DNA of 13,465 nt from a virus: the UHGV virus genome UHGV-2124687; one strand, written 5' to 3'. Numbering within the stretch: position 1 is the first letter of the stretch; each line of letters opens with the position of its first letter. Positions 3,544 to 13,465 of the stretch are shown here, piece after piece. Made by a program: the position numbers and the translations under genes. A model generated the notes under the pieces. It saw only the letters and a program-made list of their open reading frames with translations. It did no database searches and had not been told where the DNA came from.

Positions 3544-3783
3544 ATGTACAAAATTGATGCCGTGAAATTTTTCGGCACAAACACTCAAGTGGCACATGTT
3601 GCTGGCGTCGACCGCTCTGCTGTAAGTCAATGGAAAGAACTTGTTCCCGAGCGCTGTGCTCAGCGTCTCTCTGATGCCTCAAATGGCGCACTCATCTACG
3701 ACAAAGACGTTTATGACCGTTACCGCCAGGCCAAACGCCTTGGTAAACAGAATACCTGCATAACCAAGAAGGAATCTGATTGA
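3544..3783 (+). CDS. ydaS: YdaS-like Cro-type HTH protein, 79 aa
   Basis: ATG at 3544 with GAGG 7 nt upstream; motif AHVAGVDRSAVSQWKELVPERCAQRLSDAS matches the YdaS/Cro-like pattern; divergent from the repressor; stop overlaps the next start (TGATG). Confidence 0.75.
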   Translation: MYKIDAVKFFGTNTQVAHVAGVDRSAVSQWKELVPERCAQRLSDASNGALIYDKDVYDRYRQAKRLGKQNTCITKKESD

Positions 3784-4259
3784 TGAAAATCAACGAGATT
3801 AAATTGCTGGCCATCGAGCTGGAAGAGTGGGCGATGAAGGATGGCAGGAAAGGGGGCTGGAAAAAGATAGTCCCGCTGATTACAGCGCATCACTACGGTG
3901 ATTTGCTGGACAGCCTGACAGATATCGTGGACCCGTCAGAGTATGTGCGCCGCCTGCATAACAACACGCAGATCATCCAGCGGGCATTTCGAAATGACAC
4001 ACCGAACTATCGTGGCCAGGCAGCTGCGCTGGCGCCAGCAATCAAAGCTGCGATGGATGCAGAGCTGGCTGGTCAGCATGACTTACATAACCTGGTGGCC
4101 ATTGCGAACCGCGAGTGCATCGAGGCGACCAGTGCAGTGCTGACTGGTAAGCCAATGCAGGTAATCCGCAAAGAAACGGCAGAGGCAATTCAGGCTCTGG
4201 CCGATCTCATCCCCGGCGTCAGCATTCAGTTCAACCATATTGGTCCACGCGCGGCGTAA
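3783..4259 (+). CDS. ydaT: YdaT-like protein, 158 aa
   Basis: Translationally coupled immediately downstream of the YdaS-like gene, as in Rac racR-ydaS-ydaT; the family call rests on position and general similarity from memory. Confidence 0.55.
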   Translation: MKINEIKLLAIELEEWAMKDGRKGGWKKIVPLITAHHYGDLLDSLTDIVDPSEYVRRLHNNTQIIQRAFRNDTPNYRGQAAALAPAIKAAMDAELAGQHDLHNLVAIANRECIEATSAVLTGKPMQVIRKETAEAIQALADLIPGVSIQFNHIGPRAA

Positions 4260-9723: not shown

Positions 9724-10695
9724 ATGATGTCAACGTTGCGCAAGATCGATCTGAATTTATTGCTTATATTCGATTCTCTTTATCGGCATGGAAGCGTGAC
9801 GGAGGCCGCCAACGAACTGGCACTAAGCCCATCCGCACTAAGTCATGCGCTCAATCGCTTACGTACATCACTGGACGATCCCTTATTCGTGCGCACTGGT
9901 GGAAGCATGGTGCCCACGTCAAAAGCTGAAAGCATTGCAGCAAGTATTTCTGCCGCTCTAGGAAGTCTCTCGTCCTGCCTGCATGAGCCAGAACACTTTG
10001 AGCCGGAAAAAAGCCGGGAGAGTTTTACCTTTGCTGCTACGGACTACACTGCCGCCGCTATCCTGCCAAGCTTGATCGCGAGGGTTAACAGCCTTGCGCC
10101 GGGCATTACCATTAAGCTTATCTACTCACGCGATTTTAACGCCGACGAAGATTTGCTTTCAGGCAAAGTTGATTTCGCCCTTGGCTTTGAAGAAGAGCAG
10201 AAAGCCCCACGGCGCGGCATAGAGTCGATTACTTGCTTTACTGATGATTACGTGGTTGCAGTGCGACGCGGTCATCCTAATATCCAGGATTCCCTTACCC
10301 AAGAGCGTTATCTGAGCGCCGGACACGTAGTGGTGCGTCCATGGTTGGAAAGACGGGGGGGGATCGACCGTTATCTGGAAAGTCAGCAGGTACGTCGCCG
10401 GGTCGTTGTTGAATTGCCAAGCCTGATGATTGCCCCAATTATCGTTTCGAATACTGATCTGGTTATCACGCTTCCCAAGCGGGGGATCTCATCAGTTTTT
10501 GATATGAAAAATCTGGTGGTGTTTGCTCCCCCGTTCCCGACACCACAGTACATTTTGAAAGCCTATTACAGCCCGGCACTCGGTAACTCGCCAGGGCATA
10601 TATGGATGAGGGGGCAAATTTTGCAGGTTTGTGATCCGCTAAATCCGGCGATGCCAGTAATTGCTGTCGATACAAATTCTGGTACAGAAAGGTAA
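9724..10695 (+). CDS. LysR-family transcriptional regulator, 323 aa
   Basis: N-terminal LysR-type HTH (KIDLNLLLIFDSLYRHGSVTEAANELALSPSALSHALNRLR) and typical length; divergent from the GNAT gene across a 136-bp AT-rich region. Confidence 0.9.
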   Translation: MMSTLRKIDLNLLLIFDSLYRHGSVTEAANELALSPSALSHALNRLRTSLDDPLFVRTGGSMVPTSKAESIAASISAALGSLSSCLHEPEHFEPEKSRESFTFAATDYTAAAILPSLIARVNSLAPGITIKLIYSRDFNADEDLLSGKVDFALGFEEEQKAPRRGIESITCFTDDYVVAVRRGHPNIQDSLTQERYLSAGHVVVRPWLERRGGIDRYLESQQVRRRVVVELPSLMIAPIIVSNTDLVITLPKRGISSVFDMKNLVVFAPPFPTPQYILKAYYSPALGNSPGHIWMRGQILQVCDPLNPAMPVIAVDTNSGTER

Positions 10696-11820: not shown

Positions 11821-12129
11821 ATGAGCAGATCAAAGACCAAAGCCGAACAACTTCATCTTTCCCGCGTAGTCGTGCTGGGCTGTATTGTCTGCAAAAACCT
11901 GAATCTGGGTGAAACCCCAGCAGAGATACATCACATCCGAACTGGTCAGGGAGCTGGCCAGCGCGCTGACAATTTCAAAGTTATTCCTCTTTGCCCAATC
12001 CATCATCGCCAGGGCGGACACGGCGTAGCCATTCACGCTGGCCGCCAGTCCTGGGAAAACAATTACGGTACTGAAACAGAGCTGCTGGTGCAGGTTCTCT
12101 ACGAACTGGGGGAATCGACTTATGCCTGA
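11821..12129 (+). CDS. YbcO/Ref-like putative metal-binding nuclease, 102 aa
   Basis: Cys/His pattern (GCIVC...HHIRTG...CPIHH) and position directly upstream of a rusA-like gene, as in DLP12 ybcO-rusA. Family from memory. Confidence 0.55.
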   Translation: MSRSKTKAEQLHLSRVVVLGCIVCKNLNLGETPAEIHHIRTGQGAGQRADNFKVIPLCPIHHRQGGHGVAIHAGRQSWENNYGTETELLVQVLYELGESTYA

Positions 12130-12481
12130 ATATAAAATCTCTCCCGTTGGTAAGCCCAGAATGACCCGCGCTGATAAATGGAAAAAGCGCCCCGAGGTTC
12201 TGCGTTACCGGGCTTTCTGTGATGAAGTGCGTCTGCAGGGTATTGAGCTGCCGGAAAGTGGCTCGCATGTCACCTTCATCCTTCCGATGCCAGCGAGCTG
12301 GAGCAAAAAGAAACGGGCTGAGTTCAACGGTAAACCGCACCAGGCTAAACCTGATTTCGACAACATGATGAAAGCCCTGATGGACGCTATTTACGAAAAT
12401 GATGCTCATATATGGGATGTACGGGTATCAAAATTATGGGGTGAAACAGGGAGAATTATTATTGAGGAGCTAAAAGCATGA
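12122..12481 (+). CDS. rusA: RusA-family Holliday junction resolvase, 119 aa
   Basis: Acidic motif KPDFDNMMKALMDAIYENDAHIWDVRV parallels the RusA catalytic Asp cluster; start overlaps the upstream gene; stop overlaps the next start (ATGA). Confidence 0.7.
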   Translation: MPEYKISPVGKPRMTRADKWKKRPEVLRYRAFCDEVRLQGIELPESGSHVTFILPMPASWSKKKRAEFNGKPHQAKPDFDNMMKALMDAIYENDAHIWDVRVSKLWGETGRIIIEELKA

Positions 12482-13077
12482 CGCCACGCCAACGAAGACT
12501 ACAGCAGTCAGCACTTGAAAAAGCAGCAGTTGCGCCGCGTAAAAGCTGGCTGGGTAAATGCATTCTTCTGACGGGGATTCAGTCCGGATGGATTAAATCC
12601 CTGCTCACTACATGGGGCGAGGGTGTGGGAGGTAAAACAGCACCTCGTATGCCGCGGGGCCATGCGTGCTGGAATGTGCTTAAGGGACGGAACTGGTCAG
12701 ATAAGGCGCTTGAGCGTTTCACTGCTGCGTTGAATCAGGCGAGAGAAGAGGGATTCCGTGGACAGCAGGCAATGAACAGGGCACATAGCATTCTCTGGCC
12801 CCAGTCCCCCGCCAGTGTGATTGACGAGGCCCTGCATAATGACGATGTCGATTTTGTTGAGCAATGCGTACTGCAGGCTCTGGATATTAACGATCCGGTT
12901 TATGTTGTTGGTCTTCAGTATTACACCACTCGAAAAAAAATCTCAGACATAACCCGGGAACTGCAGACGATTGCACCATGGTTAACTGACGGGGAGGCGA
13001 GAAAGCGCGTGCGCTGGTGCCTGGAAATATTCAGAGCAAAGGTCTTTTTGGAGGCACGCAAACAACTATCTGAATAG
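12478..13077 (+). CDS. Putative late-gene antiterminator (Q-like), 199 aa
   Basis: Called mainly on position: coupled downstream of rusA and directly upstream of a promoter plus terminator unit. Sequence family not confirmed. Confidence 0.55.
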   Translation: MTPRQRRLQQSALEKAAVAPRKSWLGKCILLTGIQSGWIKSLLTTWGEGVGGKTAPRMPRGHACWNVLKGRNWSDKALERFTAALNQAREEGFRGQQAMNRAHSILWPQSPASVIDEALHNDDVDFVEQCVLQALDINDPVYVVGLQYYTTRKKISDITRELQTIAPWLTDGEARKRVRWCLEIFRAKVFLEARKQLSE

Positions 13078-13125
13078 ACTCAATGAACCATTTTTAGCTA
13101 TTAGTGCTTTTTTTTGATAGTGGAG

Positions 13126-13153
13126 TTGAAAACGGGCCAGAAAATTAGATAAT
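13126..13153 (+). promoter_or_regulatory. Candidate late promoter (pR'-like): TTGAAA-N16-GATAAT
   Basis: Hexamers at 13126-13131 and 13148-13153, about 50 nt after the Q-like stop and about 70 nt before a strong terminator. Confidence 0.4.
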
Positions 13154-13223
13154 CCATTCATGCTTGGCAGAGCTGCGCCACGATGGCAGCGACGAAAAGC
13201 GAACAATTTGAATATAACGAGAA

Positions 13224-13244
13224 CCCCGCCAGCGCGGGGTTTTT
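13224..13244 (+). terminator. Rho-independent terminator (tR'-like)
   Basis: CCCCGC-CAGC-GCGGGG then UUUUU. Confidence 0.7.
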
Positions 13245-13259
13245 GCTTTCCGGCGATAC

Positions 13260-13302
13260 GACAGGGGTATTCGCGAACGTGCTACGGCACAGTACCCCTG
13301 TC
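13260..13302. repeat. 10-bp perfect inverted repeat (GACAGGGGTA / TACCCCTGTC) enclosing a smaller GTGC-TACG-GCAC hairpin
   Basis: Read directly, just after the tR'-like terminator; no U-run follows. Confidence 0.5.
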
Positions 13303-13465
13303 ACATCGTCGGTCTAATCATAGAAAATATAAAAGCGTGCCGTTTCGCGGGCTTTATCGTCTCTGGAGTCTGGGTGTCGAAAATTAAAACAATACCTAAT
13401 ACGATATATTTATCCTGACTTATCCAATTTTTCTGCAGAGGTATTTATCTTTGATAACACCATCA

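Follow-up and report, generated by a model that had tools for sequence, protein, structure and literature searches.

We report that the segment at 13126-13249 is, with high probability, a late regulatory cassette, the Q21-type antitermination switch of a lambdoid prophage from an enterobacterial host, probably Citrobacter. The window, i.e., the whole stretch of 13,465 nucleotides that was analysed, carries a Q-like gene and, directly past it, a predicted sigma-70 promoter, a -10-like element and an intrinsic terminator. The initial annotation had compared this region with the lambdoid pR'-qut-tR' arrangement. This comparison is supported, since the promoter, the -10-like element, the terminator and a Q homologue are all present and conserved at the level of sequence. 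The cassette is ordinary in kind, an unannotated member of a well-known system. The sequence elements described in that annotation are there, but it missed the candidate pause element, the structure of the leader RNA and a hairpin past the terminator. In addition, its end coordinate of 13244 cuts a conserved block that extends to 13311. The features are as follows.

12478-13077, + strand: Q-like gene, 199 amino acids, putative divergent member of the Q21 / DUF1133 superfamily (PHROG 753, sequence chain, predicted fold)
13126-13131, + strand: -35 hexamer TTGAAA of a pR'-type late promoter (read from the sequence; TTGA invariant in 102 units)
13136-13143, + strand: conserved spacer core GCCAGAAA, at about -24 to -17, candidate Q-binding element
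13148-13153, + strand: -10 hexamer GATAAT (read from the sequence; final AT invariant)
13159-13167, + strand: -10-like CATGCT (13159-13164) and TGG, candidate sigma-dependent pause element, at about -1 to +5 (fixed spacing, conservation)
13160-13249, + strand: predicted terminated leader RNA of about 85-90 nt (fold, conservation)
13162-13200, + strand: predicted 5' stem-loop of the leader, with outer stem GCUU (13162-13165)/AAGC (13197-13200) and inner stem GCUGC (13172-13176)/GCAGC (13186-13190)
13218-13249, + strand: intrinsic terminator of the tR' type, CCCCGC (13224-13229), loop CAGC, GCGGGG (13234-13239), U-tract
13251-13311, + strand: hairpin 2, a conserved 61-nt RNA hairpin directly past the terminator (fold, covariation)

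A tRNA search of the window found no tRNA.

The upstream gene encodes a divergent relative of Q21

The product of the gene at 12478-13077 matches PHROG 753, "anti-termination protein Q-like", with E = 7e-61. This is the only entry that labels it Q-like, and its close homologues are all named "hypothetical protein" at NCBI. The protein has no sequence match in Pfam (E <= 0.01), NCBIfam or the PDB, and it does not reach the curated thresholds of PF06530 (Phage_antitermQ) and PF06576 (DUF1133). Relatives are few, with only 63 among 1.8 billion cluster representatives.

The link to Q21 is made through a chain of comparisons and through the predicted fold. In phmmer, the product matches P0145 with E = 1.5e-21. 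P0145 scores 26.2 bits against Pfam DUF1133, where the cut-off is 23.1, and only this distant relative passes; the window protein, which stays below the Pfam thresholds, is therefore a superfamily-level relative and not a member under the current model. A profile that joins the window family and the P0145 group was aligned by hhalign to the DUF1133 + PF06530 protein of locus L015 (95.7% probability, E = 9e-9, 164 columns), and the L015 protein matches the Q21 chains 6p18 and 6jnx with E = 9e-6. Q21 was not found in a profile search of the PDB with alignment A3, and a shallow alignment (A2) gave a probability of only 11% against Q21 in hhalign. As for the fold, the AlphaFold2 model used here is the second, obtained with a more diverse alignment (pLDDT 78.7, pTM 0.65). 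When it was compared with the whole PDB by Foldseek, the top 11 matches were all phage 21 Q, with probabilities of 0.98-1.0 and TM scores of 0.56-0.66, at E-values of only 0.014-0.5. It supersedes a first model from a shallow alignment (pLDDT 61.7), which had no significant structural match. The P0145-DUF1133-Q21 chain and a predicted fold for which 11 of the 11 best PDB matches are Q21 support the product as a divergent Q21 relative, and the earlier Q call for this gene is borne out.

We also considered that the product could be a sigma-like or activator protein for the late promoter, with the terminator merely ending the transcript of the Q gene. With the first, poor model, ECF sigma / anti-sigma complexes and Q21 were about equally good matches, and the Q21 fold is itself similar to sigma region 4 in complex with an anti-sigma factor (PMC6606751). 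However, the better model matches only Q21, and a good sigma-70 promoter with a -10-like element and a terminator is a layout unexpected for an activator-dependent promoter. Moreover, the homologous stretch of Salmonella phage ST64B is transcribed while its Q gene is silent (see below), and thus the promoter does not need the Q protein. An activator role is improbable, and we retain the assignment as a Q21-like antiterminator.

The gene is located between the nin/rusA region and the lysis genes. Its upstream neighbours encode RusA (12122-12481) and a RecA-dependent nuclease. The window itself stops short of the lysis genes, and in L080, a locus of 96% identity, the holin gene lies 1.4 kb downstream. 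In the relatives, the family is always located between NinG or RusA and the holin gene.

A conserved putative late promoter follows the Q-like gene

The hexamers TTGAAA and GATAAT are separated by a spacer of 16 nt (13132-13147), and the terminator stem begins 70 nt past the -10 hexamer. This confirms the earlier description of TTGAAA-N16-GATAAT followed by a strong intrinsic terminator. In a scan with the sigma-70 consensus, the site at 13126-13153 scores 10/12 and is among the two best matches in the window.

Could this match be due to chance, next to a terminator of the ordinary sort that closes the early (Q) operon? The window has as many promoter-like sites as chance would give (15 observed, 16.5 +/- 4.2 in shuffled sequences). 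Thus, the promoter motif alone is not above chance, and its support is comparative conservation. We used an exact 18-mer from the far end of the conserved block to retrieve more than 120 viral contigs, from which 102 distinct units were aligned. TTGA of the -35 hexamer and the terminal AT of the -10 hexamer are invariant in this alignment, and the spacer is 16 nt long in all units but one. The -10 variants are TTTAAT, GAATAAT-type, TTTTAT and GCTAAT. The promoter hexamers are kept in relatives of 27-47% protein identity, where TTGAAA, TTGAT, TTGCTA or TTGCAA is found at the -35 position and TATGAT, CATAAT, TATATT, TAGATT or TACATT at the -10 position. Conservation down to 27% protein identity is seen for the hexamers, their spacing, the fixed tandem of -10 and -10-like hexamers and the leader, and the noncoding island is better conserved than both of its flanks. 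On these comparative data we reject a chance match, the probability of which is negligible. A separate scan of contigs with the 16-mer TGCTTGGCAGAGCTGC was unspecific; it gave 18 real units, and most of its 120 matches were chance hits in unrelated phyla.

The spacer is otherwise variable, but CCA and A28 are nearly invariant in the alignment, giving a core of CCA(G)AAA. In the window this core is GCCAGAAA, and it occupies the same place as subsite 1 of the Q-binding element (QBE) of pR'21, which lies at the corresponding position of the spacer (PMC6606751). The spacers of this family have no conserved direct repeat like the two copies of TGAGCA in the phage 21 QBE, and GCCAGAAA is therefore a candidate Q-binding site only. 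CAGAAA and TAGATA, which lie 8 bp apart in the window, were considered as a direct-repeat QBE and rejected because they are not kept in ZF40 or L058. A sigma-54 promoter in TGGCAGAGCTGC was rejected on inspection because GG and GC are 2 nt too close to each other. Upstream of the -35 hexamer, T-rich tracts (GTGCTTTTTTTTGATAG) are found at 13090-13120, with similar tracts in Chris1, ZF40 and Kp4882-1. These may be an UP element of the late promoter.

A candidate pause element lies at the start of the transcript

From the position of the -10 hexamer, we place the transcription start at A13160. With a start 7 nt past the -10 hexamer, CATGCT would lie at -1 to +5, where published Q cassettes have their sigma-dependent pause element, i.e., in the initially transcribed region (PMC6606751; 10.1101/651190). 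A -10-like hexamer is thus found in this region at the level of sequence, and the pausing itself is predicted. The gap between the -10 and the -10-like hexamer is exactly 5 nt in all 14 members compared, including the window. The hexamer reads YAWGCT in 13 of them and TAGGCT in the remaining one, the DUF1133-type L015. TAAGAT is found at the same 5-nt spacing in Rac-SA53, which has a further DUF1133 Q. Among the 102 units, CATGCT and the longer stretch TTCATGCTTGGCAGAGCTGCGCC (13156-13178) are nearly invariant; one subgroup (L033) has CTTACT in place of the usual leader hexamer. A second candidate, CACGAT (13179-13184), resembles AACGATGGG of lambda. It was rejected as the pause element, being situated in a variable hairpin loop and lost in many units.

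The terminator follows shortly downstream of the promoter

The terminator has a 6-bp GC core stem and a U-tract, UUUUUGCUUU at 13240-13249, directly after GCGGGG. RNAfold predicts a 12-bp hairpin. A rule-based terminator scan of the window did not list it, presumably because GAGAA (13219-13223) pairs with UUUUU and too few T are left. In the alignment of units the stem is kept and the loop varies, and AU, GU and GC all occur at one flanking pair. In every relative, the terminator lies 45-125 nt past the putative start.

The A-tract in GAGAA mirrors the U-tract of the terminator (13219-13249) on both strands, and thus the terminator could also stop transcripts from the convergent downstream gene. 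A separate minus-strand terminator for this gene at about 13340-13365 is unsupported by folding (z = 0.14). The window stops inside the convergent gene, whose end is at 13420-13465 on the - strand. It reads ...DGVIKDKYLCRKIG before the stop codon, and these residues form the C-terminus of a KTSC-domain protein (PF13619) of 70 aa. The protein is complete in the near-identical L080 (1928-2140, - strand). The KTSC gene has the appearance of an accessory ("moron") gene that was inserted after tR' and ahead of the holin gene.

Proposed mechanism of the switch

We suggest that the cassette would work as follows. Host sigma-70 RNA polymerase would start at about A13160 from TTGAAA-N16-GATAAT. Sigma region 2 would then re-bind CATGCT at -1 to +5, and the polymerase would pause after no more than about 10 to 20 nucleotides. 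Without Q, it would resume, stop at the 13224-13249 terminator and release an RNA of about 85-90 nt. Once the prophage is induced, the 12478-13077 product would bind the spacer, with GCCAGAAA as the candidate site, and load onto the paused polymerase. By analogy with Q21, it would narrow the RNA exit channel, so that terminator hairpins could not form, and the Q-loaded polymerase would read through into the lysis and structural genes.

The noncoding unit is better conserved than its regulator gene

In megablast, 13137-13311 is 88% identical in Klebsiella phages whose Q genes are too divergent to be matched by the same search. Over 89 loci with distinct Q genes, the Q gene has a median identity of 70% to the window; the corresponding medians are 52% from the Q stop to the -35 hexamer, 88% for the promoter, 90% for the leader (13159-13217), 82% for the terminator and 35% for the 150 nt past the conserved block. 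Thus, the noncoding unit is an island that is better conserved than its own regulator gene.

More distant relatives were found by tblastn. They include ST64B (Sb49, 47% identity), Serratia OS31, Citrobacter Omnitron, Providencia PSTNGR2lys, Klebsiella Mulock, Yersinia phages, Pantoea PA-1, the P22-like UPF_BP1 and Cronobacter ENT47670. All of them share a common layout past the Q gene: a -35 hexamer, a spacer of 16-17 nt, a -10 hexamer, 5 nt, (T/C)A(T/A)GCT and CGG or TGG. After the hexamer there is an RNA stem with its 5' arm from +3, then a linker rich in A and finally a strong intrinsic terminator. The layout is kept down to 27% protein identity, and the predicted RNAs of these relatives are 69-131 nt long.

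The predicted leader RNA

The fold of 13160-13250 has an energy of -34.2 kcal/mol (z = -3.2). The leader would consist of the 5' stem-loop, an A/U-rich single-stranded linker with a conserved CAAU.UGA and the Rho-independent terminator. In the outer stem, the distant relatives have GCUC...GAGC where the window group has GCUU...AAGC, which is a compensatory change from C-G to U-A. With the Rfam covariance models, neither the leader nor hairpin 2 gave a match at the gathering score; the best matches below threshold were generic leader or terminator shapes with E >= 0.05.

An ATG is present at 13160, and we asked if the conservation could be that of a leaderless small protein. An ORF of 75 aa (13160-13387) does exist, and sb50 of ST64B is annotated from the equivalent ATG. 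However, the reading frame is broken by a stop after 11 codons in Kp4882-1 and by a 1-nt indel in many units (CACGATGG versus CAC-TCGG). The ORF would cross the strong terminator, it has no Pfam match, and in ST64B a GGGAG followed by an ATG past the terminator is a more plausible start for sb50. The frame is not conserved, and we therefore reject a leaderless ORF, which is very unlikely. Judged by the reading frames of its relatives, the leader is not coding.

In phage 21, the sequences past the pause element are dispensable for Q loading (10.1101/651190). In view of this and of the strong conservation from +7 to +58, the switch mechanism alone leaves this conservation unexplained. It suggests an additional role of the RNA, either as a small RNA, as for StxS, or through the conserved 5' stem-loop. 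StxS is a small RNA made from pR'-tR' of Stx phages during lysogeny, a by-product of antitermination with a function of its own (PMC7547250).

It is possible, though we hold it doubtful, that the short RNA itself is the main selected function, as a constitutive and possibly Hfq-dependent trans-acting small RNA of the lysogen, with antitermination in second place. This would be compatible with the switch. The identity of 90% for the leader versus 70% for the Q gene, the near identity of the first 42 nt in ST64B even though the Q protein is only 47% identical, the shape of the RNA (5' stem-loop, A/U-rich linker and Rho-independent terminator) and the dispensability of this region for Q loading in phage 21 (10.1101/651190) are all in its favor. 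So are the precedent of StxS (PMC7547250) and the constitutive transcription of the homologous stretch in ST64B (PMC7067206). On the other hand, no Rfam family is matched, conservation is highest at +1 to +20, in overlap with the pause region, for which constraint on the DNA is expected, and the linker, where a seed would usually lie, varies most. We favor the Q21-type switch as the primary role of the cassette.

Transcription of the homologous region in Salmonella phage ST64B

In ST64B, the promoter, CATGCTTGGCA.AGCTGCGCC..GATGGCAGCGACGAAAAGC and the terminator between sb49 and sb50 are nearly as in the window. The leader is almost identical to that of the window over the first 42 nt, with a Sb49 protein of 47% identity. 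There are two differences: ST64B is without hairpin 2, and the annotated sb50 coding sequence begins within its leader. An expression table covering 17 conditions is available for S. Typhimurium D23580 (Owen et al. 2020, PMC7067206 supplement). In this table STMMW_20141, the Sb49 homologue, is silent (1.5-7 TPM). STMMW_20131, the next gene, whose annotated start is the ATG of the leader, reaches 23-258 TPM, and the holin gene STMMW_20111 has 0.3-33 TPM (PMC7067206). These values fit a promoter that is active in the lysogen, with transcription that mostly ends short of the lysis genes. They offer indirect support for the short terminated RNA that the initial annotation had predicted in the lysogen. 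In the supplements searched, no mapped start was found for STMMW_20131 / SL1344_1958. STnc1310 was rejected as the ST64B leader, since it belongs to the immunity region, at a distance of about 8 kb.

The annotation of sb50 itself deserves a comment. In the ST64B locus (L245), sb50 is annotated at 3655-4014, from the first ATG of the late leader and through the terminator. Past the terminator, at about 3746-3759, GGGAG as a Shine-Dalgarno sequence and an ATG are present, and these look like the real start. The annotated start at the leader ATG is probably an artefact.

A conserved hairpin past the terminator

Hairpin 2 consists of a 7-bp outer stem, a 2x2 internal loop, a 12-bp stem, a conserved UUCGCGA bulge and an apical stem of 4-5 bp. 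The fold of 13160-13315 has an energy of -72.1 kcal/mol (z = -6.3). Over 44 distinct sequences, 97.5% of the cells are paired, versus at most 53% with slid partners. At three of the five apical pairs, both partners change (GAUGC/GCAUC, GGUGC/GCACC, GGUGU/ACACC, GAUAC/GUAUC). The variation between G-U and G-C pairs is compatible only with RNA of the + strand. The long central stem is invariant, in part because its 5' arm served as the search pattern.

The 3' arm of the terminator, the U-tract and hairpin 2 are also found behind Q genes of other types, i.e., PF06323 (Q82 type), DUF1133/PF06530 (Q21 type) and PF03589 (lambda type). Of the 16 complete units retrieved by leader sequence, 6 lack hairpin 2. 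Because other Q types have the hairpin and some leader units do not, it is a separable module and dispensable for the Q switch. One may speculate that it is an RNase III site or a stabiliser of the late transcript, which its length and internal loops would suit. We rejected the idea of an antiterminator RNA of the HK022 put type: put consists of two stem-loops upstream of terminators, while hairpin 2 is a single extended hairpin downstream of tR'.

We put forward as tentative, with less than even odds, a wider proposal for the two RNAs. The leader of about 88 nt would represent an undescribed RNA family of enterobacterial prophages with its own function, e.g., as a StxS-like small RNA, and hairpin 2 would be a portable module (e.g., for RNase III processing or for stabilising late transcripts) exchanged among phages with four different Q types.

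Other phages have structured RNA at this place as well. In Klebsiella phages Kp4882-1 (L003 4200-4330) and Mulock (L249 2240-2330), another long conserved hairpin, GGTCAGGGCTCTTGGG...AGAGCCCTGAACC, lies between tR' and a tRNA-gene cluster. The motif AGTGCTCTTTCCGTTGTGGTGAAT recurs in Kp4882-1 and Pantoea PA-1, and in altered form in UPF_BP1. It may be that these phages generally carry structured RNA past tR'.

Comparison with known late switches

The cassette of phage 21 is similar in many respects. It has the same gene order, the Q21 fold (predicted for the window protein), a sigma-70 promoter directly past Q (likewise predicted in the window), a -10-like element in the first transcribed bases and an intrinsic terminator within 100 nt. 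There is also a conserved element in the spacer between the -35 and -10 hexamers where the phage 21 QBE lies. The differences are that the window protein has 199 aa, compared with 162 aa for Q21, and is below every Pfam and NCBIfam threshold; that a TGAGCA-type direct repeat is not present in the window; and that about 60 nt of leader, including the 5' stem-loop, are better conserved than the gene here, which is undescribed for phage 21.

The pR'/qut/6S RNA/tR' system of lambda follows the same logic, with a short RNA that is made constitutively. The -10-like pause element of lambda is at +1 to +6, compared with -1 to +5 in the window. Lambda differs in that the fold of Q-lambda (PF03589) is unrelated, the RNA is 194 nt long and a -35-like element is also needed (PMC6606751). 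StxS is alike in being a short RNA from a late promoter that ends at tR' in lysogeny; this likeness is one of origin and shape and not of sequence.

Implications for annotation and neighbouring genes

With these findings, a family named "hypothetical" by NCBI gains a probable function in Citrobacter, Enterobacter, Klebsiella, Salmonella (ST64B Sb49), Pectobacterium and others, and it is now placed within the Q21 structural family as a divergent relative. The cis signature, a -10 hexamer, 5 nt and a -10-like hexamer (YAWGCT in all but one member), could improve the annotation of late promoters and could correct gene calls such as ST64B sb50. Two RNA features go beyond the known model, namely a leader whose conservation exceeds that of the regulator gene and a hairpin past the terminator that is common to four Q types. 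Well-studied Salmonella strains with ST64B or a related prophage would allow direct tests of the two.

Further upstream in the window, a LysR-family regulator (HTH_1 + LysR_substrate) is encoded at 9724-10695 (+ strand). It lies in the early/nin region of the prophage, where it is unusual cargo.
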